A stretch of DNA of 64,000 bases from a bacterium (GCA_043811375.1 JBDRNJ010000074.1:1-64000); one strand, 5' to 3'; shown: positions 13,224-31,908, counted from the stretch's first letter. The notes: generated by a model from the letters alone, not told the origin. Program-made: numbers and translations.

Positions 13224-13249
13224 TTGTGACGAGCACACTTGACAACAAC

Positions 13250-13861
13250 ATGAAAGACTTCCTCCTCAAACATAAATGGCCATTGATAGTGGCCGCCGCC
13301 GCGCTGCTGATCTTCTCCTGTATCATCTGTTCTGCCGCAGGCTGTTCGGTTCACCGCTACTACTCGGCGGAACCGGTCGGAGAAACGAGGGTATCACAGG
13401 GTCGGCTTACCTTCCGGTCCTGTTCGATGCAGCATCCGGATAAGGATTATGCCAATCAGACCAGCGATACCGCCTTCTCCGCGGGTGACTCGTATTTTCG
13501 CCAATACCAGAACTTCACCAGGGACAGTTCCAAGGAGTACTGGTTAGTGGAAGTTTGCCAAAGCGGTAGAGATGGCGCACCGAGCACTACGCTATCGATA
13601 GACTCAGTCGTTGCGCACTTCGAGAAACCGTGCGGCTCAGTGAAGATTACGAGCCTTGACCGGAGTACCTACCAGATAGCAATGAGCAAGTGTTTCTATA
13701 TTGCCCCGCTGGGTGTTCCACTGTCCTACAAGGGTGATTTCGTGCTGGAGTTTGTACTGTCCATCTACGATGAGAAGACCAATAGCCTTATTGACAGGTT
13801 GCCAGTGAAGCTCCTGTGCAAACGCCACAAGAAGTTGCTGACGCCGTGGCCCGGGAGATGA
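13250..13861 (+). CDS. Hypothetical lipoprotein whose first 20 codons duplicate the downstream gene
   Basis: MKDFLLKHKWPLIVAAAALL start; AAGC lipobox. Confidence 0.6.
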   Translation: MKDFLLKHKWPLIVAAAALLIFSCIICSAAGCSVHRYYSAEPVGETRVSQGRLTFRSCSMQHPDKDYANQTSDTAFSAGDSYFRQYQNFTRDSSKEYWLVEVCQSGRDGAPSTTLSIDSVVAHFEKPCGSVKITSLDRSTYQIAMSKCFYIAPLGVPLSYKGDFVLEFVLSIYDEKTNSLIDRLPVKLLCKRHKKLLTPWPGR

Positions 13862-13875
13862 TGCCGCCGTCTAAC

Positions 13876-16133: not shown

Positions 16134-16436
16134 TTATTTGCGAGCCACTGCGGCATTGACCGCTCGCCGGGCCACCTGGGGTGCCACCTCACAAATCGCT
16201 ATCAGTTGGTCAATCGCCTCGTCGAGATATTCCAGCCACTTTTTGCCCGGATACTTCCTTATCAGATCGTCGGTGACTTCATCGGCGATAGCGGCAATGA
16301 ACTGAGCGTACTTCTGGCGCTTCCCGACTTTCAGGAAGGGCAGCACGTACCTTTTAGTGACATAACCGGCAAACAACAATGCCGTCGATCCGAGAACACC
16401 GACCCACGAGATCGGTTCCGATACGAAATTGTCCAT
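16134..16436 (-). CDS. Small membrane protein, holin-like
   Basis: One N-terminal TM then basic/amphipathic tail; AGGAGG SD; last gene of the phage-like cluster. Confidence 0.5.
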   Translation of the reverse strand: MDNFVSEPISWVGVLGSTALLFAGYVTKRYVLPFLKVGKRQKYAQFIAAIADEVTDDLIRKYPGKKWLEYLDEAIDQLIAICEVAPQVARRAVNAAVARK

Positions 16437-16485
16437 TGGTTCCTCCTGCTTGTTTGTAGAGTTATTATAATGGCGCCTCAACCGG

Positions 16486-17691
16486 CTACCAGCCGAGCGG
16501 CCAGGCCGTATTATCGGGCACCACCAGACGTTGCCTTAAAACTGTCCCGTCGGTACGGCTTATAGTCAATTCGTATTTGGTTCCGGATGGTATCAGGGAA
16601 TCCGACGGTATCAGGTCGAGGTAGAAATAGCCCGCCGTATCGCTGGTGGTTGCCACCGCAAACGGCGATACTATCCCCCCCGAGAATCGCACCGCTCCTG
16701 AGGGAAGGTGAGCCGTCACCGAAGCGCCGGTTTCCGGAGCGCCGTTGATGTCATAGAGGTAGCCATACACCCGACACAACTCCGGTGACGAGGGCGCACC
16801 CGGATCAAACTGGTCACCGTGGACGGTGTCGCTGCCGGCACCGCTGACCACGATCGTGTCATAAGCGACAAAGGTGTAGCCGGGCGCCGTCGCCACTACG
16901 ACGAAGCTGTCGGCGTCAAGATTGAACGACACCGCTCCATCGCTGCCGGTGGCACCGGAAGCCAGCCGCGAGGTCTGAGCGACGTTTCGGACGGCCACAC
17001 TTGTCTGCGGCACTACCTGACTGACCGATGAATCAAAAGCCACGATCGTGTACGAGTAAGCACCCGAGCCGGCGCTCAATCCCGAAATCTCACTGTCGAG
17101 ATACTTGCCGAAGGTGCCGCTGACCGTATGGTTTGTTTGCGGTGTGTTCCACACCCATCGGGCCAGCGACGTCGAATCAATCGAACCTCCCTGCTCGGTC
17201 CGATTGGAATCGACCGCTCCACCCTTGGCGTAGACTGAATCGCCAATCAACGCTACCTGGTCGGACAACTCCGTGCTGATGATCTGGAAGACGTAGGTGT
17301 TGGGTGTCAGCAGATCACCACTGTTCTTTTTCGCCAGCAAACCGACGGCGTAGCTGCCGGGACTACCGCCGCCGTCCAGGTCGGCCACCTGGTCGGCAAA
17401 AGAATAGAACTGTTTACCCCTGATAGCGGTGGCGGTTATCCGGCCGTCGGTCGAGGCCATGGAATCCTTGTATACTACTGCTCCCGTGGGGTCGGTCACC
17501 ATGATGTAAACCGAGTCGGCTGTCGTTGCATTTCCCAGGCTGTCCAGTGAGTAGAAAATGAACGACAATGAGTCTTCGGCTGTAGGTGACGATGTCGAGT
17601 TGTTGACGATTGAACCCGCCGGTGTCGATACCGTCAGTAGCACTGACAGCATTGCTGTCAGAGCGATGATAACTGTCTTGGACTTGTTCAT
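16486..17691 (-). CDS. Secreted beta-rich protein with carboxypeptidase-regulatory-like domains
   Basis: Signal peptide; TGSDGAVSFNL and SDTAGYFYLDL repeats; GGAGG SD. Confidence 0.7.
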   Translation of the reverse strand: MNKSKTVIIALTAMLSVLLTVSTPAGSIVNNSTSSPTAEDSLSFIFYSLDSLGNATTADSVYIMVTDPTGAVVYKDSMASTDGRITATAIRGKQFYSFADQVADLDGGGSPGSYAVGLLAKKNSGDLLTPNTYVFQIISTELSDQVALIGDSVYAKGGAVDSNRTEQGGSIDSTSLARWVWNTPQTNHTVSGTFGKYLDSEISGLSAGSGAYSYTIVAFDSSVSQVVPQTSVAVRNVAQTSRLASGATGSDGAVSFNLDADSFVVVATAPGYTFVAYDTIVVSGAGSDTVHGDQFDPGAPSSPELCRVYGYLYDINGAPETGASVTAHLPSGAVRFSGGIVSPFAVATTSDTAGYFYLDLIPSDSLIPSGTKYELTISRTDGTVLRQRLVVPDNTAWPLGW

Positions 17692-17785
17692 ATGCCTGCC
17701 TTTTCCTCCCTGATCGCTGTCAGTTGATGGTGTTCCCCGTCCTGCCGAACGCATACCCCACCATCAGATGACCACATTCGTTTTG

Positions 17786-18553
17786 TCAATCACTCCGGAG
17801 ATGTTCCATGACTATCCGCCGTCGTCGCCCTGTCATTTCACTCGGGTAGTACAGCAGCACTATGGGATCCCTGACCGTGTCACCCTCGGTGGTACCGAAG
17901 GTCTTAATGCTGCTGTTGGCCGGAAAGGCGTTTTCATTTATGAGAATGAAGCCGTAGTCGTTGCCGGAGGTGTCCCAGTAGTTGAGTATTCTGTTGAAAT
18001 CGCTTATCTCATAGTAGTGAGTGTCGGAAACCGAAAAAGTGCAGGCCACGGCGGTAGTGTAGTCACCGCCCGGGCTGGACCAGTTCACCGAATCGCCGTC
18101 ACCTTCATCGAGGTAAGCGTGATACCAGGTGACGCCGCTGTCTTCATCGGGATAGTTGCCCAGGTTGTTGTCAAACTCGCTGCCTTCATAAAACTGAGTC
18201 GTCACCGGGTATAGAAAGATAGTGCGCTCCAGCGTATCGGCTCCGCCCTTGTAGTACAGCATCAACGTGGAGGAATCCGGCACTACTCGATCCCAGCCGG
18301 GCAGTTTCATCAACGCTCGTCGATCCTTGCCGGCATCGTTCATGCCCACCTGCAGGTTCGTGATGGCGCCGGAGTTGTAACGCCGGCAGTCTTCACCACC
18401 CCACTCGGCGTTGCAGTCAGCCCAGGAATAAATAATGCCGTCTTCGATCTCCGCCGTCCCTTTCAGTGTATCCACCCCGGCCAGGGATAAACCGGCTGTT
18501 GCCGTCCACAACAGGAGCCACACCATCAGCCTGACCGGTATTGACAACATCAC
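17786..18553 (-). CDS. Secreted DNRLRE/disaggregatase-like domain protein
   Basis: Signal peptide; RRALMKL, GVTW, WSSPGGDY, NDYGFIL motifs. Confidence 0.65.
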   Translation of the reverse strand: MMLSIPVRLMVWLLLWTATAGLSLAGVDTLKGTAEIEDGIIYSWADCNAEWGGEDCRRYNSGAITNLQVGMNDAGKDRRALMKLPGWDRVVPDSSTLMLYYKGGADTLERTIFLYPVTTQFYEGSEFDNNLGNYPDEDSGVTWYHAYLDEGDGDSVNWSSPGGDYTTAVACTFSVSDTHYYEISDFNRILNYWDTSGNDYGFILINENAFPANSSIKTFGTTEGDTVRDPIVLLYYPSEMTGRRRRIVMEHLRSD

Positions 18554-18846
18554 TTCTTTGTTCCGGCTTTGGCGGTTCCGTCCATCCGCTTTTTAGGTGG
18601 CGGTGACTCGGCTGCCTCCTGTTTGAGCGCCTCTCGCCTGATTTTTTCCAGCATACGCCAGAATTGTTTCTGGTCGGTATTGCCGGGCGCCAGTTTATGT
18701 TTCAATTCAATCATCTTAATAAAATCTCCCAGTTTGGCATGTTCCTTAACGGTTTTCCGCAGTTCCTTATGGTATTTCCTGATCAGATCGTCCAGCAACA
18801 CCAGGTCATCGGAACACTTGGTTGAACTACGCTGTGTGCCAGCCAT
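18550..18846 (-). CDS. Small basic helical protein, possible terminase small subunit
   Basis: KLGDFIKMIELKHKL helix, Lys-rich C-terminus; tightly packed in the operon. Confidence 0.5.
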   Translation of the reverse strand: MAGTQRSSTKCSDDLVLLDDLIRKYHKELRKTVKEHAKLGDFIKMIELKHKLAPGNTDQKQFWRMLEKIRREALKQEAAESPPPKKRMDGTAKAGTKK

Positions 18847-18847
18847 C

Positions 18848-19222
18848 TCAGTCACCCATTTCAACAATGAGCAGGTCGACCATTACCGGTCCGGCGGCCT
18901 CGGGATCGCGTGCGATCTTGAAATCAACGGGTGACTCCTCAGCCATAATAAAAGCGGCGTCGTGACTGCGCTGCCTGACAATTACCCGCGGCGACGCGAT
19001 CGTTGCCGGCAACTGGTTTCCCCGGTGGTCGGACAGATCGCCAAACAAAACCTGCTGGGTGCTACCGCCAATATCGCCGGTTGCGTAAAGTACCGTTTCC
19101 TGGGTACCTACTTTCTCCGACACCAGCAGATCTACCTCGTCCCAGACGGGCAGACCCCAGACAACAAATCCGGGTACGAACCAGGCCCGGCGTGCGGTTA
19201 CCTTTTCCAATCCTGCTGTCAT
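18848..19222 (-). CDS. Hypothetical protein of the phage-like cluster
   Basis: AGGAGG SD; 124 aa, beta-rich. Confidence 0.65.
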   Translation of the reverse strand: MTAGLEKVTARRAWFVPGFVVWGLPVWDEVDLLVSEKVGTQETVLYATGDIGGSTQQVLFGDLSDHRGNQLPATIASPRVIVRQRSHDAAFIMAEESPVDFKIARDPEAAGPVMVDLLIVEMGD

Positions 19223-19232
19223 CAATCCTCCC

Positions 19233-20042
19233 TTAGCTGTGCACCGGCGGCGCCGGTCCCTCACAAGGCGGCCGGAATGATCGCAATAATTGCTCCGAGC
19301 GCCGGCTGTAAACCTCGGCCAGTTCCATCCATACCGTGGCCGTACGATCATGCCCCTGCTGACGAGCCAGTTCGGCTCCCGCCGATGCCCGACACACTAT
19401 TCCCAATGCCTGGTATGTGGCGCTGGCCTGTAAAACCGGATCGGCTCCGAACTGACCGTCCGGGTCGATCTCTCGTTCTATCATGCCGTTGGCCTGAAGC
19501 ACCGCCCCGGTCAGCAATTCCTCCCGGAAACTTTTGTAGATCGGTGTGTAATCAAGATAGACCGTCTCACCGGCGGCGATATTTCCCCCGGAGAGTCGTT
19601 TGATACGACCGCGGTCAGCGTCAAGTTGATAGTCGCAGCCGTCGGTGTACACGGTGTAAGCCACAAACCAGACGGTCACGGCCTTTCCCGGAGACAGATC
19701 GCCGCCATCTTTGATATACAGCCCCCCTCCGGCATCGTCTACAACGTAGTCGACATTTTCCGTATAAACGGTCCCCAGGGAACTGTCCGACGCCGCCACT
19801 ACCGATCCCGCCACCAACGGCGACGAAGCCACTGCGTTCTTGCCGCTACTGAGTGTGAAGGTCACCCGACCGGGAACTGTACTCTGCACCGATTTGACTA
19901 TTACCGAGGTCTGCTCGACCGGCCCGCTGAAAAACATGACGTAATCGTTTTGAATCACCAGTGGCTGGTCGACTACCTTCTCCTGCGAGGGAAGGGCTGT
20001 TGCCAGATGATGGCTGACCAGTTCAACGTTCGTGTATGACAT
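19233..20042 (-). CDS. Head-tail adaptor-like protein with inserted beta repeats
   Basis: MSYTNVELV start and helical C-terminus typical of connectors; two YTxxxDYxxD...G repeats. Confidence 0.6.
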   Translation of the reverse strand: MSYTNVELVSHHLATALPSQEKVVDQPLVIQNDYVMFFSGPVEQTSVIVKSVQSTVPGRVTFTLSSGKNAVASSPLVAGSVVAASDSSLGTVYTENVDYVVDDAGGGLYIKDGGDLSPGKAVTVWFVAYTVYTDGCDYQLDADRGRIKRLSGGNIAAGETVYLDYTPIYKSFREELLTGAVLQANGMIEREIDPDGQFGADPVLQASATYQALGIVCRASAGAELARQQGHDRTATVWMELAEVYSRRSEQLLRSFRPPCEGPAPPVHS

Positions 20043-20045
20043 GAT

Positions 20046-21455
20046 TTACCTCCTGACGATGAACGCCTGCAGGTCGGACGCGGCGGTTATCTGACTGCCC
20101 ACGGGACCAGTCGTGAACGAGGACACTACCTCTATCTTCACCCAGAACCGGCTCTGGCCGTCGACCAGGTGCTTCTGCCAGTCATCAGGCATGCTGTCAT
20201 AGTCGGCCCACAGCAACAGGTCCCGGTCGGTACTGTCCAGAGCGAAATTACCACCGGCGGGTGTGAACACCTGCCAGTGGGATCCGTCCCAGTAACTGTA
20301 GACGACAGTGCCGCCGCTGCCGGCCGTGGAGAGCAGGAACTTGACGTAACGAAATTTCTGATCCATACCCAGGTAGATAACGTCCCCGCCGTCTCCGACC
20401 AGAACACTGGAGCTTGAATGGAAAACATCAGCGGTGGTGCCGTCGCCGGCGACATCGGTCAGATCGTCGTAGACGGCGGCGGATGCGTCATACAGTGTTA
20501 CGGAGTCAAACGGCTGCGCGCGAGTGTCCAGTATTGTCGGCGTTGAAAAACTGCCGGTGCTACGCGTGGTATACTTGATCGTGATCTGATCCGACGCCAG
20601 CGACGACAGGTACAACACCGCCGGCACATTGTCATTGAACAGCAGTTGCGGATAGTCACCACCGTCGCTGTCCAGAGTGATTATCGCTCCCCAGTTGGAA
20701 CCGTCGTACTCACGATACTTCAACTGACCGTGATCGTAAGCTACACCCAACGAACCGTCCGTTGAAAAGGCGGCGTCAAAGTGGTGATCGAACGAAGTCC
20801 CGGTGGCGATATTGGTCTCGCTGGTCCAGCTCCCACCCGAGATCGGCCGCGAACGAACCGACAGATAGATACCACCGTTGGCGTAAACGACAAATATATC
20901 ACCGGGGCCGACCAGTACTTTGGTATAGGCCGACGATGCCCCGCTGGTCAATACATCTCCGGCATCGGATGGTCCGCTGCCCCAGGTCGCCCCCGCATCA
21001 GTCGAGGACTTGACGTGGATGTATTGGACACCACCGTTGTGCGTCCAGCTCACCCAGAGTTTACCGCCACTTTCAATGTCCAGTGACGGATAGCGCGACG
21101 TGTTTCCATTGTAGACAGTCACCTTGGAACCGACGTTCCAGCTGCCACCGGAGAATGTCAGTTTACGCGTTACCAGATACTCGGTGGAACTCTCCGAGTA
21201 GACCACGTGTACGTGGCCGTTGCCATCCATGATACAGTCGCAGGGCTGATCGGTCGCGTCGGTCGCAATCGTCGTCAGCGACGACCAGGAATTGTAAGGC
21301 CGGTCGGCATAGCTGTATTTTATTTCACCGGCGGCTGTCTGTAAGATAGCCACCAGCCGTCCGGCATACTGGCCGGAGGACACTTGCAGCAGCTTCCGAC
21401 CTGGGGCCAGGCCCAGTGGGGAACTACCGGTTGTCTGAGTTACTTCCTTTTGCAT
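20046..21455 (-). CDS. BNR/Asp-box beta-propeller protein, probable virion component
   Basis: SSTDAGATW Asp-box, repeated SGGSW/GSNW blades; no signal peptide; follows capsid gene. Confidence 0.65.
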   Translation of the reverse strand: MQKEVTQTTGSSPLGLAPGRKLLQVSSGQYAGRLVAILQTAAGEIKYSYADRPYNSWSSLTTIATDATDQPCDCIMDGNGHVHVVYSESSTEYLVTRKLTFSGGSWNVGSKVTVYNGNTSRYPSLDIESGGKLWVSWTHNGGVQYIHVKSSTDAGATWGSGPSDAGDVLTSGASSAYTKVLVGPGDIFVVYANGGIYLSVRSRPISGGSWTSETNIATGTSFDHHFDAAFSTDGSLGVAYDHGQLKYREYDGSNWGAIITLDSDGGDYPQLLFNDNVPAVLYLSSLASDQITIKYTTRSTGSFSTPTILDTRAQPFDSVTLYDASAAVYDDLTDVAGDGTTADVFHSSSSVLVGDGGDVIYLGMDQKFRYVKFLLSTAGSGGTVVYSYWDGSHWQVFTPAGGNFALDSTDRDLLLWADYDSMPDDWQKHLVDGQSRFWVKIEVVSSFTTGPVGSQITAASDLQAFIVRR

Positions 21456-21470
21456 GGCTCCTCTGTGGTT

Positions 21471-21503
21471 CAATGGGAGCCCGGCTTAACCGGGCTCCCA
21501 TTG
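21471..21503 (-). other. 14-bp perfect hairpin right after the capsid stop codon
   Basis: CAATGGGAGCCCGG-N5-CCGGGCTCCCATTG, no U-tract. Confidence 0.7.
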
Positions 21504-21506
21504 GAA

Positions 21507-22613
21507 TTACGTCCACACCGTGTCGAGAACGACCGACGCCTCCTTGATTACCTTGGCGTAGGTGACTGACTCGGAAATGACCGCTTCTTCGAACCGCTGT
21601 TCGATGATCTTGTCATACTCCACCATCAGCGGCTGAGTAACGACTTCCTCGACACCAAAGCGCTTGTCCAGACCCAGCACCAGGTCGCTGTCGACCTCGT
21701 CCGAACGCACCAGCGTGGCTCCCAGCGGACTGAACAGGTCGCCCGTCTGTTGGAACCGGTAGCCGGCCATAGGATCTTTGAACTCGTCCAGCGTCAGGAT
21801 CGTTTTCATCTGGTTGACATGGCAGATGATGGTGTTCATTTCGAAGGGACTGAACTGCGACCAGAGACTGATCAGATCGTCGTAGGTCAGCGTGCCGCTG
21901 GCAGCGGTGTTGATGACAGTAGCGTTGTTACTGTTGCCGTCACCGTTGATGATGGTATCCACCAGCAGCCCAATCTTGTCGGTCTGAATCTTGAAGCCGA
22001 TGTACCACAGCAACACCCGAAACTGCGACGTTGCCCGGTAACGCAGTGCCTTGTAACTGGTCTTCAGGGCCAGGCCGTAATCGGCCACCTTGACCGCATG
22101 CGTCTGCTCCGTAACCAGCAGTTGCGGAATGTCCGCCCCCTCTCCGATCGGACGCAGCGAAAACTTGCTGTCATCGGATGTATCGATGAAAATGGGCGTG
22201 TAGTTGTTGCTGGCTATGGTTGCGGTGTTGGCCACCAGCCGGCCCAGTTCCGGACGCATCGCCTGCCCACGCTTGATTTCGCGCAGCATAAACTCCGGCA
22301 TCAGCGTCGGCGCCTGCTGGAAGAACTGCTCTACCGTGGTCGGCATCTTGCCGCCCAGACGAACGCCCGCCAGAGCCAACTGGCGTTCGAAGGCATCCAG
22401 CGGACAACCCGCCGGAGTCGGGTCAAACTCTTCCAGCTCCAGCATCTCTGAAAGTGTCAGCCCCCGCGCCTCCGCCTCCATGTAGATATCTTTGGTGATA
22501 TCGATAGCTGCCGACCGACTCAGGTCTACCGGTCCGGTGGCCGCCTCTCTGCTGTCCAGTGCGTGCTGAAAACCGGCACCGGCTGTTGATTGCAGAAATT
22601 GATTAAAATCCAT
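21507..22613 (-). CDS. Phage major capsid protein (HK97-fold)
   Basis: LDAFERQL, IGEGADIP, YGLALKTSYKAL, TIINGDGN, EYDKIIEQRFEEAVIS pattern; 368 aa; position in head module. Confidence 0.85.
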   Translation of the reverse strand: MDFNQFLQSTAGAGFQHALDSREAATGPVDLSRSAAIDITKDIYMEAEARGLTLSEMLELEEFDPTPAGCPLDAFERQLALAGVRLGGKMPTTVEQFFQQAPTLMPEFMLREIKRGQAMRPELGRLVANTATIASNNYTPIFIDTSDDSKFSLRPIGEGADIPQLLVTEQTHAVKVADYGLALKTSYKALRYRATSQFRVLLWYIGFKIQTDKIGLLVDTIINGDGNSNNATVINTAASGTLTYDDLISLWSQFSPFEMNTIICHVNQMKTILTLDEFKDPMAGYRFQQTGDLFSPLGATLVRSDEVDSDLVLGLDKRFGVEEVVTQPLMVEYDKIIEQRFEEAVISESVTYAKVIKEASVVLDTVWT

Positions 22614-22625
22614 TGCCGTCCCTTT

Positions 22626-23045
22626 CTAATTGAGCAGAATCACACAGTCGGTGGTTCCATTAACATCCAGCACCGTGCCACGGGCGACATTGCCCCCGGC
22701 CGGATCGGAAGCCACCGTCGGCGCCTGCTTCACGGTTCCCGAAGTTCCACCGACCACCCGGTTGCCGACCACCGGATAGGTGGTTGATACGGCCAGGCGA
22801 CAGATACCCCCGACCTGAACCGTCGCCAAACGCCGGCCGTCATCGTTGTCAGTCAGTGTCAAAGCCACCAGCTTGCCCAACAATTGACCGTCGGCGCCGA
22901 CAGGCCCCACTTCATTGTTACCTGTTAATGTTACCGGCCCTCCGATGTCGGCGTCCTTGAGATCGTCGACGTCGCTGGTCTGCTTTATCTTGAACGTGGC
23001 CAGTACCGGCGCTACCGCTTCAAGATTTTGTTCTCTTACCGTCAT
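22626..23045 (-). CDS. Capsid decoration/cement protein
   Basis: Gly-rich beta protein (GGPVTLTG..GKLV..ATVQVGG) directly upstream of capsid gene. Confidence 0.65.
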   Translation of the reverse strand: MTVREQNLEAVAPVLATFKIKQTSDVDDLKDADIGGPVTLTGNNEVGPVGADGQLLGKLVALTLTDNDDGRRLATVQVGGICRLAVSTTYPVVGNRVVGGTSGTVKQAPTVASDPAGGNVARGTVLDVNGTTDCVILLN

Positions 23046-23169
23046 GGCATCCCCTTTACAATGCGAGTTTTCAGGTTTCAACAACGGCAGATAGTCCGAT
23101 CTGCCTCATCGAGAAAATAATGTGACCGGGACAAGGTCCCACCAGGTCGGGATAAATATCCCTCTGAGT

Positions 23170-23610
23170 CTATTTGTAGTCGCGGACAGCCACGGCTCCG
23201 GCTGAATTGTGACACGAGCCCGATACCGGTGCGAAACTGGTCGGAAAGGCGTCACGGAAACGGGCGGCTGTCTTGCGATACTGTTCAATCAGTTCGGCCG
23301 CTGTTAAAACCGGCAGGCTCTCCAGATATGTCAGGGCCTTCTGCCACTCTCGCGGATGACGGTTTACGGCTGCCACCGCTTTGACCATACCCCCGATACG
23401 GGCAACGCAGTCCTGACGCCATAGTTGATTCTCCTGCAGGGCCGCCTGGGCGGCGTCAACAACAACGGCATTCTCAGATAAACACCGTCTCAGTTGATCG
23501 AAGTCGATCAGGGACATCTTCTCATCCCCCAGCAACTCGACCAGCTCCCGCAAATAAGCGCTTTGCTCACTAAGGTTTTGAAACATCTTCCCTCGGCTGC
23601 TCTTTGACAT
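23170..23610 (-). CDS. Helical protein, possible scaffold
   Basis: Coiled-coil character; upstream of decoration and capsid genes. Confidence 0.55.
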   Translation of the reverse strand: MSKSSRGKMFQNLSEQSAYLRELVELLGDEKMSLIDFDQLRRCLSENAVVVDAAQAALQENQLWRQDCVARIGGMVKAVAAVNRHPREWQKALTYLESLPVLTAAELIEQYRKTAARFRDAFPTSFAPVSGSCHNSAGAVAVRDYK

Positions 23611-23881
23611 AGTATTCTATCCTGGTTAGTCGTGCTTCCACATCCTTTGAGAACTGAAAGAACTGCTCTCTACTGACCACCCCTTCTTTCAAGATCACCT
23701 CAAAACCGGCAAGTTTTTTGTCCAGAACCTCAACCACCGTGCTCTCAGCCTTCGCTTCCAGTTCGATACGAAGTGACTGGATTGTCAAAAAGTAGGCGGC
23801 GGCAATGCCTAAAACCACGGTCAGGACATTTATCAACTGACCGCTCAGCAGCAAACCGCCTTCGCCCTTTCGATTCACCAT
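23570..23881 (-). CDS. Small single-TM coiled-coil protein (possible holin-like)
   Basis: AAGGAG SD; TM LINVLTVVLGIAAAYFL then coiled coil. Confidence 0.6.
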   Translation of the reverse strand: MVNRKGEGGLLLSGQLINVLTVVLGIAAAYFLTIQSLRIELEAKAESTVVEVLDKKLAGFEVILKEGVVSREQFFQFSKDVEARLTRIEYYVKEQPREDVSKP

Positions 23882-23947
23882 TTCCGGCTCCTTATGTTTT
23901 TGTTGCCAGATTGTCGCATTCTTCCCTAAATGAAGCCCGGAAGTACA

Positions 23948-24646
23948 ATGCACAAGTATGCCGTTATAATTGCCGTCATGGGTTTGACCTGTCTTCTGGT
24001 CGCCTGCGGCCAGGACGATCCGCCGCCGTCGTTGAGTTCCGGCTTGGACGGCGCCGTTCTGCTGGGCTTGATCAACAACCGCACCCTGAGCTACCTGCAA
24101 ACAGACACCGTTGTCTCCATCGATCCTGACTACCAGGTGACCGTCACTCAGTCGCAACAACTAATCAGGATCAGCGGCAGCGGCAACGATTGGGTCGTCA
24201 CCGTTGCCGACACCCCCACCATCAACCTGAAGCTGACCGTAGAATCGGTTATCCAGAACGGCTACTGGCGAACCGTGGATGATCAAGATTCACTCTTCTA
24301 CTTCGACACACCACCGGTGATAATGTCCCGTTCGCCGAAATCCGTTCTGAGCTGGGAGGGATACACCCCCGCCTTTGAGACCGACACCTCAAGTTCCGCC
24401 CGGCTGGTGTACAACAGCTATTTTGGTTTCTACTTTCACAAACAACTCGTTGATACTGTGCGCCTGATTGTACCGGCCGGATCGTATAACACCTGGCACT
24501 TCGATGTCAACCTGTTTGCCAACCCGGTCGATACCATTCCGGTCATCCGCATCAGCGAGTACTACTCTCCGGCGGTGGGCCTGGTCAGACTGCACCTGCA
24601 AGGCGGACCCTTGACTCGCACTCTCAGCCTGGTCGAAATCAACTGA
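23948..24646 (+). CDS. Hypothetical lipoprotein
   Basis: LVAC lipobox; VPAGSY and EYYSPAVGLV motifs. Confidence 0.75.
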   Translation: MHKYAVIIAVMGLTCLLVACGQDDPPPSLSSGLDGAVLLGLINNRTLSYLQTDTVVSIDPDYQVTVTQSQQLIRISGSGNDWVVTVADTPTINLKLTVESVIQNGYWRTVDDQDSLFYFDTPPVIMSRSPKSVLSWEGYTPAFETDTSSSARLVYNSYFGFYFHKQLVDTVRLIVPAGSYNTWHFDVNLFANPVDTIPVIRISEYYSPAVGLVRLHLQGGPLTRTLSLVEIN

Positions 24647-26156
24647 GCAAGCGGTAGAACAAATACCGCCGGCGGGCGTCGAGCTGGATCGGTCGCAACA
24701 CGTACCGGCCACTGATAGATCCCGTCAGATTCAGAGTCATACCCTCCTGATCTCTCTTCATTGACAGCAACCGTCCACTGATCAGTTGCCGACCCGGCAA
24801 TTTCACCGCCGCCGTGTCAGGAGCCAGCCGGTCCGCGACAAACCGCCCCCCTTTTTGCAGACGACCAACATTGAATTGCCTGATAGCAAATACCTCAGAG
24901 AGGTCATCATCGCGCAGAATCATCAACCGTTGACCATCGTCATCGGGTTCGACCAGCGTGTAGGTACCACCACCTGATATCGGGTGTGGTCGATAGCGAT
25001 ACCCGGCCGACATCCACAGACGATTTGCCAGCGGCCACAGCCGCACTCCGTCGCGCGTCATAATCGCCCGTGCCGATTGATCTATACCGGCTTTTCCTGC
25101 TATCCGGTACCGCATGGCACGAATACGGTCGGGCCAGCCGGCGTCAACCGCGGTTGAAACCGCCAGACCGACAGGAGGAAACAGTTTCAACTCAAGACGA
25201 GTGACCGGCCCCCCTCTGCCGTCCAGATGCCGCTCCAACTGATCCAGTGTACATCGCTCGCGACCCCGATAAGCAACCAGGTGAGCGTATTCACGGTGCA
25301 TCGGTGGCAGATGGGATACACTAAAACGTCCTCCCACCGATTCCGGAAACACCTCTCCGTCGACACGTTCCATGTGCAAAACACCGCCGTCAAGCGTGAC
25401 CATTACCGGCAGCGCCTCATAGAAGGGAACCAGCAGATACTCCTGGTTTGCGACCAATTCCGACAACTGGTTAATATCAGTGACCGACTCGATACCGGCG
25501 CTGTCGCCGGGCTTCCGGCTGGTATCTGCGACCAGTTGCCGCGACACCGAGGTATCCGATACAGCTCCCCGGTAGACCAGCGAGGTCTCCAGCACCCGTT
25601 CGATCCGGCGATAATTGAAATAAACTGTTTGTCGGTCATCGTCCCGGTCGATGCCGGCTGTCGACGCACTCTGCAACGGCTCATGGGGACAGGTACGGAT
25701 ATCCTTCCCGCACTCCGAACACTCCGGAAAACGGAATGTGAAACCGATAGAGCATTCCTTGTACACCCCGCCGTCGATATTCTTACTGAGAGCCTGAGCT
25801 CCCTCGGTATCTTTAAGCCAGTAGAAATAACTTTTCACCCAGCTTCGTCCGCCCCGTTCCTCGGTAACGGCGTGGAAATTCCGGCCGATCGGCAGGTGGT
25901 CCTTGCGGTGACCGGCCAGCACCGGCGAATCAATCAACAATTGAACCAATCGACCATGCTCCTCTACCGGAAACCTTCCCCCAAAGCTATTGACTTCGTC
26001 AGAAACCACATACATGGCTGCAACATAAACATCGGACTCGCTGACCGGCTTCGGCGGATGTACGTTCCGGTTTATCAAATCGATCAGATCGGAAGAAAGA
26101 GTCTCTGCCGATGGTTGCACCAGGCGTGCCGTAACGCTGCCCAGACTGGTGTTCAT
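24639..26156 (-). CDS. Prohead maturation protease-like protein with long C-terminal extension
   Basis: PVLAGH, PIGR, KECSIGF, CxxC..CPH, ETSLVYRGA motifs; GGAGG SD. Confidence 0.75.
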   Translation of the reverse strand: MNTSLGSVTARLVQPSAETLSSDLIDLINRNVHPPKPVSESDVYVAAMYVVSDEVNSFGGRFPVEEHGRLVQLLIDSPVLAGHRKDHLPIGRNFHAVTEERGGRSWVKSYFYWLKDTEGAQALSKNIDGGVYKECSIGFTFRFPECSECGKDIRTCPHEPLQSASTAGIDRDDDRQTVYFNYRRIERVLETSLVYRGAVSDTSVSRQLVADTSRKPGDSAGIESVTDINQLSELVANQEYLLVPFYEALPVMVTLDGGVLHMERVDGEVFPESVGGRFSVSHLPPMHREYAHLVAYRGRERCTLDQLERHLDGRGGPVTRLELKLFPPVGLAVSTAVDAGWPDRIRAMRYRIAGKAGIDQSARAIMTRDGVRLWPLANRLWMSAGYRYRPHPISGGGTYTLVEPDDDGQRLMILRDDDLSEVFAIRQFNVGRLQKGGRFVADRLAPDTAAVKLPGRQLISGRLLSMKRDQEGMTLNLTGSISGRYVLRPIQLDARRRYLFYRLLS

Positions 26157-26344
26157 ACTACCTCCGTTACCGTTGTTTATAGTCAGGCGGAGACAAGTAT
26201 TAACCGACAATTCTGTCTCTATTTTGTGCAATAGTCTGCGAACTTTGACTTTCCTGCCGATTCCCCCAATTCAACAGCCCCCCCAACTCAACCAGCAGTG
26301 TCCCAATGAGTTATTGCAACAGCAAAACCAAAATAACTGCTGCC

Positions 26345-26360
26345 GGGCATATCTGTTGCT
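26345..26360 (+). promoter_or_regulatory. Putative sigma54 promoter of PEP-CTERM gene
   Basis: GGCATATCTGTTGCT, GG-N10-GC spacing. Confidence 0.6.
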
Positions 26361-26410
26361 TACCCGTATGACGACACAAAACTAAAAACAGATATCAGAA
26401 AAGGATAGCC

Positions 26411-26683
26411 ATGACAATTTACGAAAGAGAAGAATCACACTGGTTGAAGTGGTTACTGGGAACCATCATTTTTGTTCTGATTCTGACGGTCACTTTTGAC
26501 AACGTTTACGGAATCGGCGTTCCCTCGGATAACAATGATGGCGCTACCAGTGTCCAGCAGACTCCGGCCGGCACCGATGGGTCAGAATCCACCCCACCTC
26601 CGGAAGTCCCGGAACCGGCTACCCTGTTGCTGCTTGTTTCCGGCCTGGGAGCTCTGCATTTGATACAACGCAGAAAAAAATAG
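26411..26683 (+). CDS. Small PEP-CTERM protein
   Basis: VPEPATLLLLVSGLGALHLIQRRKK C-terminus. Confidence 0.88.
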   Translation: MTIYEREESHWLKWLLGTIIFVLILTVTFDNVYGIGVPSDNNDGATSVQQTPAGTDGSESTPPPEVPEPATLLLLVSGLGALHLIQRRKK

Positions 26684-26710
26684 CATCCTCCCAACCCTCT
26701 CTACCCCCTG

Positions 26711-26754
26711 AACGTCTTCTGAGTACCTCCCCTCAGGAGACGTTTGCTTTTTTT
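26711..26754 (+). terminator. Intrinsic terminator
   Basis: AACGTCTTCTGAG/CTCAGGAGACGTT stem then T7. Confidence 0.7.
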
Positions 26755-26918
26755 GTCTGACCGGCTAAAGATACCCACGTACACGGAGATCACAACAACC
26801 GACCCGTAAATGTCGGTCAGGGTCAATCATCATGGAAACTTACCCCATTCATTACACGCGCCGGGCTGGCCGGTTGTAACCCAACCTTCACCACAGATGT
26901 GCCACCGCAGGTTTGGTA

Positions 26919-28409
26919 CTATTCCTGCAGAGCCTCTGTCCACCAGATCAGGTTCTCCAGAAGCCCGTCGCTGTAACCGCTTTCCTCGTAGCGTATGCTC
27001 CCGTTTTTGTCGATGACACACAGATATGGTATGCCGTTGATACCATAGGCAGTAGCCAGATCATTGGTGCCGTAGAGCAGGGTCATGTCGTAGCCGTTCT
27101 CGGCCATGAATTCCTTTGACATGGCCTTCCCTTTCTCCCAGACATTCACCGAAAACACCCGTACGTCTTCGCCGGTGTGGTTCTCCGTGAAATCGTCTAT
27201 CATCGGCATCGCCTTGATACACCAACTGCACCAGCGAGCCCAGAAATCCAGCACCACCACCTTGCCGCGCAGATCGGCCAGGTTCACCGTGTTACCGGCA
27301 GCATCGATCAACGACCAGGCGGGAGCTTCCTTATCCAGCTTGTCGGCTAACGCCGCTTCTTTTCTTTGCGGACGCCCTTTATCCCAGTTAGACCGGAAAG
27401 AACCAATGACGTCGGCCCAGCGCGGATCCTGCCGCAATTCCGATAAATCCGAATCCTCCCGGGCGTGACCGACCAGGCTATATCCCTTTTCCCCGGCCAT
27501 AGCCAGATACTCAAAAGCCTTGTCATTATCTTTCATTAATGCGTAAAGACAGGCCATGTCATAGGTGACTGCACCGTCGGAATCGTCGCTCCCCGTTGAT
27601 GACAGATAGTCCAGCCCCGCCTGATAAGCCTTAGCGTCGATAAGCGCCCGCTGATAGTAAGTTGCAATATGTTTGTCCCGATCTTCTTCCGGCCAGCCGC
27701 GTTCGGCAATCCGATAATCGATCTCCTCCTCGATCGATTTCAAAGCTTCCTCGTATTGCCCCATCCGCGCCTGGAGATTGCCGCGATCAAGCCCGGACGG
27801 CCAGCTTCCCTCGGCCTTCTCGCCCGCTTCCAGTGTTTTCAGGGCTTCATCCCACCGGCCCTGGTAGATCAGGTAACCGAACTGAAACTCCAGCGCGTAA
27901 TCCTGACCCGGCTCCAGTTTGACCAGAGCTTCAAACAACGGTCCGTCTTCCTCAAGCATCGCCAGCAATTGTTGATGGTTTTCACCCTCTTCGTCAGCCT
28001 CCAGCAGATCGTTGACGTACGTGGCCAGAACCAGGCGATAACCGTACGGCCACTGGGGTTCGAGCATGATAGCCTGACGTCCCAGCCGTATCTGCTCTAC
28101 CGGGTCCTCGGTCACCCGTCCCAGTAAATACTTGTGTCTGGCTGCCTCCGGATGTGATTGGCTTTTCTCCCGGCAGTAGTCCCGTATTCCGTCAGGGTCA
28201 ACCTGTCGCCATTTGTTTTGAGCCTCCCGCACCACGTCGACATCTTCCGCATGTTCCATATAATCCCGGCACAGATTGACAATCGGAGCATCCTCTTCAA
28301 GTGCCTTGTATGCAGCCTTAAAAGATTTCATACTGTAGTCACCCGCCACCGTACAGGTAACCGGAAGAACAGTAACCACGATTAACATGACAAAAACAAA
28401 ACGTCTCAC
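26919..28409 (-). CDS. TPR plus TlpA/redoxin domain protein
   Basis: DFWARWCSWC, YGINGIP; TPR-like N-terminus; GTG start with GGAGG. Confidence 0.88.
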   Translation of the reverse strand: MRRFVFVMLIVVTVLPVTCTVAGDYSMKSFKAAYKALEEDAPIVNLCRDYMEHAEDVDVVREAQNKWRQVDPDGIRDYCREKSQSHPEAARHKYLLGRVTEDPVEQIRLGRQAIMLEPQWPYGYRLVLATYVNDLLEADEEGENHQQLLAMLEEDGPLFEALVKLEPGQDYALEFQFGYLIYQGRWDEALKTLEAGEKAEGSWPSGLDRGNLQARMGQYEEALKSIEEEIDYRIAERGWPEEDRDKHIATYYQRALIDAKAYQAGLDYLSSTGSDDSDGAVTYDMACLYALMKDNDKAFEYLAMAGEKGYSLVGHAREDSDLSELRQDPRWADVIGSFRSNWDKGRPQRKEAALADKLDKEAPAWSLIDAAGNTVNLADLRGKVVVLDFWARWCSWCIKAMPMIDDFTENHTGEDVRVFSVNVWEKGKAMSKEFMAENGYDMTLLYGTNDLATAYGINGIPYLCVIDKNGSIRYEESGYSDGLLENLIWWTEALQE

Positions 28410-28617
28410 ACTGACCTCCAAAGTAGAAACAACAATGTACTTTCTGTCGCTTGTGATGCCGGTTCGGCACAGATAAAACGTCGACCGAACCGGGCAACGT
28501 TTATATATAGTGTTTTTGCCGTCGAAACGCAAAAGTTGTTTTGGTAATGGAAGGAGAAGAAGGTCGAGTCACCGTCGGCGATCACCCCGGACAAACTGTG
28601 GTATAGGTATCAACCGA

Positions 28618-29196
28618 TTACTCGTTCGTCTTACTGGGAAAATTCAGCACGGCCGGTTGGGGCAGCTTCATCAGGTCGCCCGACCCTTGCGAGCACGGTT
28701 CGTCCACCAATTCATGCGCTAGAATGGCGATGGCGCAGCAGTTCAGAGCTTGGGCCAATTCACCGGCGTGAAATGTCTGTGCCCATAAAGTGTGACCGGC
28801 TCGCAGAGCATCATCAAACCGACCGGTGTAGACCTCTTCCAGGGATTTCTGCATCCGCCACTCATCAGCCTTCCAGTTGACGTGCAGGCTTACGAAATAG
28901 GTTCCACGGCTGGCCGGAACCAGCGACTCCATGATAGCCAGCAGGTATCGGTTTCCCCCGGTATACAGCGGCAGGGTCAGGCGTAATCTGATTCCCGAGT
29001 CAAGTTTCTCGTCAGACGGATCGGCAGCAAATACCTCCATACAGTCCTGCCAGGAATCTGCTTGAGGGTAGGCTGGAAACGGTATCTGCTCCAGCCAGCC
29101 CAGCAGTTCACCGCGAATGGCGGCAACGTCCATCAACGGTTCACCCTTTTGCAGTTGCTCCAGAACCGCTTCTTTGACTTCTTTGCTTACCGGCAT
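28618..29196 (-). CDS. Hypothetical protein
   Basis: 192-aa ORF downstream of terminase. Confidence 0.6.
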   Translation of the reverse strand: MPVSKEVKEAVLEQLQKGEPLMDVAAIRGELLGWLEQIPFPAYPQADSWQDCMEVFAADPSDEKLDSGIRLRLTLPLYTGGNRYLLAIMESLVPASRGTYFVSLHVNWKADEWRMQKSLEEVYTGRFDDALRAGHTLWAQTFHAGELAQALNCCAIAILAHELVDEPCSQGSGDLMKLPQPAVLNFPSKTNE

Positions 29197-29293
29197 CTGT
29201 TCTCTCTTCGGGGCTGCTCCCGCAGCCGTGGTTACAGAGTATATACTATAGATTATCGGCCAACCGCCGAAGGTCTGCAGAGGGCGCCCACCC

Positions 29294-30640
29294 TCACACC
29301 ACCCCCACTCTCGGTGCCGGCGATAAGTCGCACTTTTTGCGCAGCGGCCACAAGGCCAGCGCCAGGGCCATCAGGGCATCGCACCGATTGTTGTCGTCCC
29401 AGCGCGCCTGGCGCAGTTCGTCCTCCAGCGACCATACCTTCCCCGGTCCGTCGGGCAATTCCCAACGCTGGTAGGCGATCTGCCCGCGCGCGTGCATTAA
29501 CTCGACGTTGATCAACAGCTCCGCTTTGGTGGTCGGAGTGAAAATCACCGGTGTCGGATTGAATTCTCTTAGCTGCTCAACCACCACGTCCCCCAGGCCG
29601 GTGGCGTCGACCATCAGTTGTCCCGGGTACTCAAGCTGGCGTTGTTTGATTTTTTCGATTATGACATTCCAGTCAAACATCCGGAATCGTTCCAGCGCTA
29701 TGATTCTTGCGAAGCCGTCGGCAACTTCTACCGTTATCCCCACCGTAGCCGTTCTTTTGCGCGCCAGGTCCCATCCAGTCAGGCGCATTGGTGCCACCCG
29801 GCCTGCGATAGTCTCAAACGACGAAAAGGCCTCACGACACCCTGCCAGCGCCACATCGATGTAAGCCCCCTTGAGAATCTCCCCGCCGGAATCGACAAAC
29901 TGGCCCATGATATTCTGCTGTACGCGCCGCTCGGTGAAATACTTCAACCTGTCTTTCAGGAAGTCGCTGGAGATGTGTTTGTTCTCACGGCTGTCGCCCG
30001 TCTGGAAATATCCGTCCCGTTTGCCGTCCATGATTTCACGCGCCCGGCGGTAGAACCAGTTGCGGCCGTTAGGGGTGGAAACCAGGTCCAGCCGACCCTC
30101 CCGGTCGGCCAGACGCATCTGTATAATTTCCTCGACCACGTACTCCGGGTCCGTCTCGAATGCGACTTCGTCGAATATAAACAGATCGTAGTCCTGGCCC
30201 AGCAGGTATTCACCCCGGTTTTGTGTTGAACGCGCCTCGACCGTAGCGCCGTTGCCGAACTGAAGCCGGGGATACGGGGTGCGGATCAGGTTGCTTATCA
30301 GCGGCGCCACCAGTGATGACTGCCGCACCAGTCGCACCACCTGGTCAAACACGATCCGGGCTTGTTCCTGGGTTATGGATGCCGTGATGATACGATACCG
30401 TCCACTGGTATCATACTTCAGATGCCGGGGACGGTACAGTGCGTGATGCACCACTTTAACCGCAGCTACAAACGATTTCCCCCAGCGATTGCCGGTGGCC
30501 AGAAGGTTCTCCCGGCGGCAGGAGTTGGCCAGCCATTGCCTCTGACCGTCGTGCAGGTTGATCCCCAAAACGGCCTGAGCAAAATAACCCGGATCGTCAA
30601 ACCCCCGCCGCCAGTCGACAGTCTGACCGTCGCCGGTTAT
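29294..30640 (-). CDS. terL: Terminase large subunit (start ATA 30640 or TTG 30568)
   Basis: Walker A GNRWGKS, Walker B FIFDE, motif III STP, nuclease acidic motifs GWDLAR, VDATGLGD, CDALMALALA. Confidence 0.92.
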   Translation of the reverse strand: MTGDGQTVDWRRGFDDPGYFAQAVLGINLHDGQRQWLANSCRRENLLATGNRWGKSFVAAVKVVHHALYRPRHLKYDTSGRYRIITASITQEQARIVFDQVVRLVRQSSLVAPLISNLIRTPYPRLQFGNGATVEARSTQNRGEYLLGQDYDLFIFDEVAFETDPEYVVEEIIQMRLADREGRLDLVSTPNGRNWFYRRAREIMDGKRDGYFQTGDSRENKHISSDFLKDRLKYFTERRVQQNIMGQFVDSGGEILKGAYIDVALAGCREAFSSFETIAGRVAPMRLTGWDLARKRTATVGITVEVADGFARIIALERFRMFDWNVIIEKIKQRQLEYPGQLMVDATGLGDVVVEQLREFNPTPVIFTPTTKAELLINVELMHARGQIAYQRWELPDGPGKVWSLEDELRQARWDDNNRCDALMALALALWPLRKKCDLSPAPRVGVV

Positions 30641-31908
30641 ATCAATCCTCCCGCTTTTTCACGAGCGATTGCTTCATCGATCAGGCCGGCCTGGAAAAGT
30701 CTGAGGATGTTATCCACGCGGCGCGACTCTACCTGGGCTTTCTCGGTTGCCTGGTAGGAAAAAGTATTGTCAAACACAAACCGGCAGCGGGTGTCAAATC
30801 CGCCCAGGGCGAGATCGACATTGCCTATCCACTCCAGGAAATCGGCAACTTCCGCCTGTACCGATTTCACTTGTCGCATAACGATATCGAATTTGAACCC
30901 CGACCAGGTAGTGGTGGCACCGTAGGAATAACCCAGCAGGAACGGCGCCAGGCTGGTGCCGGAACATATATCCTCCACCATCGCCCGGTGATTGAGAAAC
31001 CAGCTGTTGGTCACATTGCGGGAGGTGTTAGGGCCGATATATTCGATAGCAACGTTGTCCCAGGTGACCGGGTTGTCGTCAACTTCGCAGGATTTGATCA
31101 TCGACACCGTGGAGTCGAAGTAGCTGTTGATCCGATCGACGTAGGCACTGTCGGATTCCCCGGCCGATCGCCCCGGTGGTGTGATCTTGACATGAAGACG
31201 GTGAAAGCCGGAATTATGGCTGGTGCGTCGCATGTCATCGACCAGTTGCTGCTCAATATAGGCCACAAACGAAACCGCCTTCAACATTGATCGTCCCAGC
31301 GGTTCGGACAGGTTGCCGTTGAGAGCCACGTGATAGAAGTCGGGGCGGTTAAGTACCAGGGGGCCGGTGTCGCGATCCAGGATCAACCGCGCCTTCCCTT
31401 CAGCTTCCTCGTAACTCAACCGGGAGGAATCGACTCCGAAGAAACGATCGACACCGGAGCCATCGCGGGAGACAGTCAGGAAACCACCAAAGACACCATC
31501 GCGGTACAGAGCGGTGAACAACTCTGTAAGAAACGTTACCAGCCCTACCGGGTTGCCGGCTGCATTTACTCCCAGGTGTTGTGACAACCTCTCCAGTCGC
31601 CGGCCGGCCTGCTGTCGCTTTTGTTCGTCGGCGGCACCAACCACCTGGTACTCTCCCGGCGCTGCCGACAACCTGACCCAGGTCCAGATACAGGCGCTGA
31701 CTACCGGCAGGTTATCCGTCAGAAAACGATAAAGCAATGTCCGGTAGCGGCCCGATCTGACTTCTGACTGCGACATCCGGAGCATGGAATGCAACCGCTC
31801 GGAAGTCCCAAACCGTGTCTTCTCGATTGTTCTGGCCGCCGTTGACAGGCGTGATTGCCCGGGCATATCGGCGGTGCCCTCTTCTTTCTTCCCTGAGAAC
31901 CAACCCAT
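30637..31908 (-). CDS. Phage portal protein
   Basis: 423 aa, adjacent to terL; PLGRS, LAPFLLGYSYGATTTWS-type motifs; AAGGAG SD. Confidence 0.75.
   Translation of the reverse strand: MGWFSGKKEEGTADMPGQSRLSTAARTIEKTRFGTSERLHSMLRMSQSEVRSGRYRTLLYRFLTDNLPVVSACIWTWVRLSAAPGEYQVVGAADEQKRQQAGRRLERLSQHLGVNAAGNPVGLVTFLTELFTALYRDGVFGGFLTVSRDGSGVDRFFGVDSSRLSYEEAEGKARLILDRDTGPLVLNRPDFYHVALNGNLSEPLGRSMLKAVSFVAYIEQQLVDDMRRTSHNSGFHRLHVKITPPGRSAGESDSAYVDRINSYFDSTVSMIKSCEVDDNPVTWDNVAIEYIGPNTSRNVTNSWFLNHRAMVEDICSGTSLAPFLLGYSYGATTTWSGFKFDIVMRQVKSVQAEVADFLEWIGNVDLALGGFDTRCRFVFDNTFSYQATEKAQVESRRVDNILRLFQAGLIDEAIAREKAGGLI

Follow-up and report, generated by a model that had tools for sequence, protein, structure and literature searches.

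What keeps a set of tailed-phage head and DNA-packaging genes in place among the ordinary genes of an uncultured bacterium? The question is posed by positions 16134-31908 of a 64,000-nucleotide stretch of bacterial DNA (GCA_043811375.1, JBDRNJ010000074.1:1-64000; hereafter the window), in which a first-pass annotation had proposed a domesticated cluster resembling a gene transfer agent (GTA). Our analysis points to a vertically inherited phage head/packaging module under purifying selection, spanning ~16 kb here, that is likely GTA-like and would pack host DNA into small capsids, a reading to which we assign a probability of roughly 0.62. Judged from the genes, domestication with retention across the phylum appears practically certain, packaging of host DNA into the heads seems probable, and delivery of that DNA in the manner of a GTA is favored with less confidence. 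Host control and the formation of a DNA-packaging particle, both part of the original proposal, we infer from the same genes.

Distribution, inheritance and selection

The nearest relatives of the major capsid protein (MCP), mostly assigned to Zixibacteria, share 57-86% identity with it, and the next tier about 35%; the host is presumably a Zixibacterium. Across a phylum set of 239 genomes at least 85% complete, MCP was detected in 224 (189/198 high-quality genomes; 109/115 genera) and the large terminase (TerL) in 228, one of these matches being weak, and only three genomes (G030, G088, and G175) had neither. MCP gave a single match in 214 of the 224 positive genomes and two matches in 10, and a few of the module-gene matches contained an internal stop; rpoB, our yardstick, was detected in 54 of 55 genomes picked for MCP. 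The gene here called F was counted in genomes at least 95% complete and found in 117 of 121. For comparison of gene content, we assembled 57 loci, none longer than 20 kb, that represent 18 families (54 found through MCP, 2 through TerL alone, plus the window); genes at the module ends often fall beyond the locus edge, which lowers their counts. Gene order is kept across all 18 families, and in three of the five genomes checked (G177, G217, and G239) the half with portal and TerL, or else TerL, is separated from MCP by 90-110 kb, and both halves are retained. The module is thus phylum-wide and ordered, neither confined to one strain nor scattered over variable loci.

Trees of the module genes were compared with that of one host marker, rpoB, using FastTree supports. 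The head tree (MCP, decoration protein, and genes E, F, and G; 41 genomes with intact rpoB) reproduced 35 of 38 rpoB splits, against a maximum of 2 in 500 label shuffles, showed no conflict at support of at least 0.95, and recovered as monophyletic all 15 families with at least two members. The tree of TerL and portal (27 genomes) shared 18 of 24 splits with rpoB, again with zero conflict at 0.95 and with 8/8 families monophyletic. Ratios of nonsynonymous to synonymous divergence (dN/dS), from up to 12 pairs of which two share one genome and some exceed a dS of 1, had medians of 0.06-0.24 over the module genes (TerL, 0.09 from 4 pairs), far below 1. In the least saturated pair, dN over dS was 0.037/0.70 for MCP and 0.041/0.73 for rpoB; a capsid gene evolving about as slowly as rpoB argues for a function worth keeping since the root of the phylum. 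The closest free phages share only 33-37% MCP identity. Phylum-wide spread, rpoB congruence, low dN/dS, and this distance together bear out vertical inheritance, as first suggested, over a recent prophage.

The genomic setting is that of a host region. Families of integrases, repressors, replication proteins, tape measures, tail tubes, and endolysins gave zero matches in the window (56 open reading frames searched against Pfam and 23 against PHROGs), no tRNA was found there, and no flanking att-like repeat was seen among the 20 largest direct-repeat families listed for it; apart from the tRNA result, these absences agree with the first-pass annotation. Each module gene had one tblastn match in the host genome. 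The host-like composition noted by eye is borne out by GC content (55.9% versus 53.6% genome-wide) and by codon scores, which place the nine genes of the module region that were read in frame between the 28th and 99th percentiles of 1284 long reading frames, MCP being at the 99th. Scans of the window for promoters (13 versus 9.0 ± 3.1 expected) and terminators (10 versus 14.1 ± 3.5) remained at chance, and no conserved upstream motif was visible by eye among the loci listed.

Gene content of the module

The features are given below in their order along the minus strand of 16134-31908, with counts among the 57 loci and median dN/dS.

30637..31908, minus strand: portal protein (phrog_3753, E 2e-21; 41/57 loci; dN/dS 0.086, 3 pairs)
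29294..30640, minus strand: large terminase TerL (Pfam Terminase_6N, 1e-9; phrog_2, 5e-32; 40/57 loci)
28618..29196, minus strand: 192-residue gene, a local insertion outside the module (2/57 loci)
26919..28532, minus strand: TPR-TlpA thioredoxin-like host gene (Redoxin/AhpC-TSA), a local insertion (2/57 loci, the second a 75-residue match only)
26411..26683, plus strand: PEP-CTERM protein of 90 residues (PF07589, E 3e-5), antisense between TerL and protease (28/57 loci)
24639..26156, minus strand: prohead protease with a zinc-finger insertion and a decayed ATP-dependent DNA ligase/LigD-type phosphoesterase region (phrog_16951; 51/57 loci; dN/dS 0.19)
23930..24646, plus strand: lipoprotein-like host gene, antisense and patchy (13/57 loci)
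23570..23881, minus strand: I, single-span coiled-coil protein of 103 residues (47/57 loci, hydrophobic segment in 36/47; weak matches to unnamed phage families)
23170..23586, minus strand: H, likely scaffold (40/57 loci; weak profile match, E 6e-4, to a related phage's gene that immediately precedes decoration-MCP)
22626..23045, minus strand: decoration-like capsid protein (phrog_4588, E 1.6e-6; 53/57 loci; dN/dS 0.073)
21507..22613, minus strand: MCP (phrog_3922, E 6.5e-65; 55/57 loci; dN/dS 0.056)
21471..21503, minus strand: stem-loop right after the MCP stop (15 pairs; -31.3 kcal/mol, z -7.1)
20046..21455, minus strand: G, beta-propeller with a C-terminal beta-sandwich (AlphaFold pLDDT 94; 55/57 loci; dN/dS 0.11)
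19233..20042, minus strand: F, likely head-tail adaptor with two inserted immunoglobulin-like domains (55/57 loci; dN/dS 0.15)
18848..19222, minus strand: E, 124 residues, found with F and G (55/57 loci; dN/dS 0.13; no Pfam or PHROG match)
18550..18846, minus strand: D, 98 residues, likely small terminase (TerS) without a DNA-binding domain (50/57 loci; dN/dS 0.24)
17786..18553, minus strand: C, signal-peptide-like accessory gene (weak CBM96 match, PF24517, E 0.011; 4/57 loci, more in close relatives)
16486..17691, minus strand: B, signal-peptide-like N-terminus and prealbumin-like domains (CarboxypepD_reg below cut-off; 50/57 loci; dN/dS 0.11)
16134..16436, minus strand: A, membrane protein of 100 residues, holin-like by shape only (29/57 loci, many loci ending before A)

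In our reading of the window, every named gene of the module is an open frame on the minus strand. The portal, TerL, prohead protease, putative scaffold, decoration protein, MCP, and beta-propeller of the first-pass annotation are thus present and undisrupted, and the identities of portal, TerL, MCP, and decoration protein are backed by profiles (PHROGs, plus Pfam for TerL). The gene missing from that list was the small terminase, which D likely encodes.

Translation of TerL had been placed at the TTG at 30568, the first such codon; a non-canonical ATA at 30640, overlapping the portal stop, is more probable. Where the two genes are adjacent (44 loci), 37 loci show a 4-nt overlap, with ATA as its codon in 21 of those 37, and 20 loci have no ATG, GTG, or TTG ahead of a conserved tryptophan of TerL. 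What we take to be the Walker A motif, GNRWGK[ST], is invariant in the 36/36 rows that cover it, as are the presumed coupling motif STPxG (40/40) and the presumed acidic nuclease motifs GWDL (40/40) and DxTG (40/40); the ATPase and nuclease motifs are therefore intact, as first described. TerL sequence patterns had zero matches in IMG/VR. PDB matches of the TerL profile were phage terminases, with no RcGTA protein among them and no RcGTA sequence in the comparison, and in the TerL tree (FastTree) viral sequences nest within the Zixibacteria clade on nodes without support (0.00-0.11).

The case for D as small terminase comes from phage relatives. A profile search with F yielded 57 clusters that form a sister group lying beyond the Zixibacteria clade, from which four IMG/VR contigs were examined. 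Homologues of D stand directly before TerL in all four, which puts D in the position of a small terminase; the order is F-D-TerL-portal in three and D-TerL-portal, with F further along the same contig, in the fourth. Among 56 Zixibacteria loci, D itself precedes TerL in 8. Alignment of its helical core to the phage protein scored 89% in hhalign (E 2e-6), and a PDB sequence search with the TerS profile returned nothing useful. All four phage homologues open with a CxxC...HxxxH domain of helix-turn-helix-like pattern, which is absent from 79 of 83 Zixibacteria copies, a few of them possibly clipped at locus ends. Loss of the N-terminal DNA-binding domain has been proposed as a mark of GTA small terminases (Sherlock et al., PMC6854486, in the portion available to us), and the TerS of FpGTA is described, in the accessible part of its account, as likewise lacking such a domain (PMC12946183).

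Regulation of output may be written into the head genes. A hairpin with z < -2 follows MCP in 39 of 55 loci, compared with 2-5 of 53-55 behind three other genes, where the downstream sequence is mostly coding, and its structure is conserved while its sequence is not. Together with the ATA start of TerL, the hairpin would suit an operon that is expressed and yields plenty of capsid protein and little of the motor.

In the protease, the His and Ser motifs, whose roles we assume, are conserved across 51 orthologues. Its long C-terminal region was identified in four orthologues, from families f13 and f14, as an ATP-dependent DNA ligase (PF01068, E 1e-28 to 1e-30) with a weak LigD_N match. The ligase motif EPKYDG, which holds the KxDG lysine, occurs in those same 4 of 51 rows only; the lysine is lost in the window protein, and the ligase region is missing in many Zixibacteria families. 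Since three of the four related phages carry the same fusion, the ligase was evidently inherited with the phage and is now being shed while the protease is retained. As a separate observation, the ligase-phosphoesterase part of a full-length fusion (L220:3200-5800) is 25% identical to the protein annotated as an ATP-dependent DNA ligase in archaeal virus ANMV-1.

The candidates for neck, exit, and entry are less readily named. Among PDB structures, G matches best a chain from the portal-tail complex of phage LME-1 (E 3.5e-11, TM-score 0.38), sialidases and lectins follow with similar scores, and a viral structure library returned mixed propeller proteins; the predicted model leaves G undecided between a nozzle-like and a sugar-binding virion protein. 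Comparison of G with a phage propeller showed no similarity, PDB sequence searches with the G and F profiles gave nothing useful, and shortened copies occur at 3 of 55 loci for G and at 1 of 55 for F. F has a predicted four-helix frame around two beta domains. Its beta part aligns weakly (TM-score ~0.25) with chains from phage baseplates, tails, and necks, the PDB gave no strong match to an adaptor, and Atlas leads to gp6, gp15, and SU10 adaptors score 0.82-0.88, below 0.9; the adaptor label given earlier has leads only in its favor. As to a podovirus-like short tail (adaptor plus propeller nozzle), G offers a portal-tail match tied with sialidases, and F adaptor-like helices with leads under 0.9. 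E showed no similarity to the gene at the same position of a sister cassette described below.

A hydrophobic segment lies within the first 90 residues of B in 41 of 50 loci, compared with 0-1 of 55 for MCP, F, E, and G. The holin label first given to A found no match in any holin family, nor did I match one, and a holin of LL-H type was rejected for A for want of a match at the locus. Three endolysin families were absent from the 5 genomes searched. Long-tail genes are not co-inherited with the module: among the three families searched, the tape measure (PF10145) occurred in none of 5 genomes, and sheath and baseplate J turned up in one of the 5, the window's own (0/4 of those on single contigs). 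There they belong to a separate, unrelated contractile injection-like cluster (G000:C38:1-9642; L218 and L219) with sheath, two tube-like genes, a PAAR-like gene, and baseplate J, which was not found in the four single-contig relatives.

The first-pass statement that host genes interrupt the module holds for the TPR-TlpA gene, a local insertion like the 192-residue gene; the PEP-CTERM gene has instead proved to be an old resident. Its ~90-residue product is barely more than a membrane segment, a linker, and a sorting motif. The host genes upstream (encoding a TPR protein, a 190-residue protein, and a PD-(D/E)XK nuclease) are common across the order and present in some other families. Elsewhere in the window, a 63-nt near-exact duplicate (13247-13309 and 13873-13935) encodes an N-terminal membrane segment common to two neighboring genes.

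What the module may do

In the mechanism we favor, portal, scaffold, protease, and MCP would build a prohead, with the MCP hairpin and the weak ATA start of TerL setting the output of capsid high and of motor low. With a TerS deprived of the domain that putatively reads sequence, TerL would be free to begin on host DNA of any kind, and F, G, and E would form a stubby neck that closes the portal and binds a target cell. The membrane proteins A and I, together with B, which is probably exported, would help in release or in attachment to the surface. The ancestral protease-borne ligase would have ridden in the head and sealed DNA ends, a function lost in this genome.

This picture is built on sequence and predicted structure, and several observations weigh against it. 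Neither an endolysin (three families, 5 genomes) nor a holin match for A was found that would explain exit from the cell, and the search likewise turned up no tail tube, no tape measure, and no clear fibre for receptor binding that would explain delivery. By its scores, G fits sialidases about as well as it fits a phage tail chain, and B looks exported, which does not suit a particle assembled in the cytoplasm. The N-terminal domain is kept in 4 of 83 TerS copies, and the DNA-binding role of the lost domain is deduced from its shape, the domain matching an unnamed PHROG only and no named family. Finally, some genomes retain one part of the module: a closed 2.1-Mb genome on a single contig (G087; L161 and L284) keeps head and portal, with a short G, and has no TerL match even with a query from the same family, and the well-assembled G023 and G105 keep TerL without MCP and F. 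In the G023 locus (L176:10480-13128), the protease directly abuts B, the block from I to D is gone, and MCP and F were found nowhere else in the assembly.

Some of these points would suit a host particle that serves a non-genetic purpose and is handled without lysis, in which heads, filled with DNA or empty, are anchored at the envelope or released through it by way of A, I, and exported B, and act in adhesion, as decoys, or as a source of extracellular DNA. The signal-like N-terminus of B, the likeness of G to sugar-binding propellers, the lack of any lysis enzyme among those sought, and the head without TerL in G087 are all in its favor. We consider it unlikely: TerL carries intact ATPase and nuclease motifs in 228 of the 239 genomes, which makes DNA cutting and pumping the selected core, and B may be a mere co-inherited neighbor. 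We know of no non-lytic route by which such bacteria export an intact capsid.

More doubtful still is that the heads are host-owned yet depend on phages or are hostile to them, relying on an infecting phage for tails and lysis, in the manner of capsid-forming satellites, or spoiling phage assembly and packaging as a defence. The lack of a long tail or endolysin among the families searched, the phylum-wide retention of adaptor-like F, and the tape-measure tail of a related phage that has the same F-TerS-TerL-portal block (L241/L282) would all agree with such a dependence. Partners of fast-changing phages are expected to change fast themselves, whereas the module is under strong purifying selection and tracks the host tree; it has no integrase or replication gene, and neither MCP nor TerL led to a close helper phage in IMG/VR or INPHARED.

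A decaying or recently acquired prophage remnant is hardly credible, since the tailed-phage origin of all core genes, the decayed ligase domain, and the occasional short G or F are set against phylum-wide presence, host-like codons, and the absence of all 12 listed indels (13 in total) in a close relative's contigs from phage-derived genes, and the rpoB-congruent trees and low dN/dS refute it.

Within the GTA-like reading, one may picture a bolder version, which at present looks improbable: a tail-less, lysis-free DNA-transfer particle spanning the phylum, with a sequence-blind terminase, two membrane proteins and a Sec-exported protein of virion origin that hand heads across the envelope or anchor them in it, an ancestral ligase in the head to seal delivered DNA, and the same phage family tamed a second time, with a different terminase, in an Electryoneota-like lineage.

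The vertically inherited module, present in ~94% of the genomes of a whole uncultured phylum, is of broader interest because the stages of its domestication can be followed by comparison with living phage relatives: TerS loses its N-terminal domain, the fused ligase decays, TerS is relocated, and the module splits into unlinked halves. The Electryoneota-like lineage offers a second lineage for comparison, and G087 a natural test case for the loss of packaging.

Relatives and known systems

The nearest phage relatives examined, four uncultured phages represented by IMG/VR contigs (G247-G250; L238-L241), all share homologues of F, TerS, TerL, and portal with the module, and three of the four share MCP, at 36-37% identity, and three the protease-ligase fusion. 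They differ in carrying tail spikes or fibres (3/4), recombination or other phage genes, and a TerS with its N-terminal domain, and G, E, B, A, and I have no clear counterparts in them. In trees of MCP and portal, Zixibacteria stand apart from these phages as well as from Electryoneota-like and Oscillospiraceae sequences, the root being untested.

A sister cassette lies among host genes of a second bacterial lineage (L229:5934-14785, L231:7347-12679, and L232:7756-12394). It runs decoration-MCP-F-small gene-TerL, followed in L229 by portal and protease, and its TerL belongs to another family; an independent domestication or a terminase swap is the probable explanation. Sources name its capsid relatives Ca. 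Electryonea clarkiae, LCP-89, Calditrichaeota, and KSB1. A further cluster was noted in Oscillospiraceae genomes and in IMG/VR contigs of 12-13 kb (L098-L118, for example L111:1-12298), with the order TerL-decoration-MCP-portal-protease followed by what by eye are sheath-, tube-, and baseplate-like genes. Having no obvious replication genes, it is a candidate GTA-like system in its own right. GTA-like packaging has been reported in this family (PMC12946183), and the sheath-like tail of the cluster is unlike FpGTA as characterized in the consulted portion of that report, the two being compared by description only.

Our search, which left subscription journals mostly outside its reach and supplementary tables unopened, found no published account of a GTA or a capsid/terminase module in Zixibacteria. 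Capsid-forming satellites of the cf-PICI type possess head, portal, terminase, and adaptor genes without tail or lysis genes, and are mobile, with integrase and replication genes; the module has neither and co-diverges with its host. More generally, the marks of prophages and such satellites (integrase, att sites, replication or lysogeny genes, and patchy spread) were not found here.

Among GTAs, the RcGTA type (Rhodogtaviriformidae; PMC9662315, PMC6854486), as far as the available parts of these sources describe it, resembles the module in its endogenised caudoviral head and packaging genes, vertical inheritance, occasional splitting, absence of replication genes, and TerS without a DNA-binding domain at its N-terminus. 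The module, known from genes alone, differs in having no tape measure or tube, a protease-ligase fusion, and a signal-peptide-like partner, and it derives from another phage lineage, its nearest relatives being uncultured viral contigs and Oscillospiraceae clusters at ~35% MCP identity (RcGTA was not in any tree). FpGTA of Faecalibacterium, taken from the accessible description (PMC12946183), is similar in its operon of ~10 kb encoding TerS without a DNA-binding domain, TerL, portal, scaffold, MCP, and short-tail proteins, in its near-ubiquity in the host group, and perhaps in its particles without visible tails, the module being known from genes only. It is unlike the module in its second operon (fibre, holin, and endolysin), of which no counterpart was found here, and in its confinement to one genus rather than a whole phylum.

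Of the six features by which Kogay et al. (2022, PMC9662315; consulted in part) recognize GTAs, the three that can be examined in sequence are present: proteins derived from Caudoviricetes for a caudovirion-like particle (PHROG and Pfam matches, plus homologues on viral contigs), full endogenisation, often over several loci (host-gene surroundings without att, tRNA, or integrase, and halves split in G177, G217, and G239), and mostly vertical inheritance with co-diversification. The other three call for experiments: encapsidation of mostly random host DNA, on which the TerS lacking its N-terminal domain at 79 of 83 loci bears only indirectly; a head too small for its own genes, which span ~16 kb here; and delivery of the packaged DNA to other cells, for which the tail and lysis parts are candidates at most. 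Known from its genes, the module is not yet to be classed as a GTA. To our knowledge, characterized GTAs are few and tied to orders or genera. The module descends from a phage lineage of its own, and it stands apart from the known GTAs by its reach, its ligase fusion, a probably exported partner, and the lack of recognizable tail and lysis genes.

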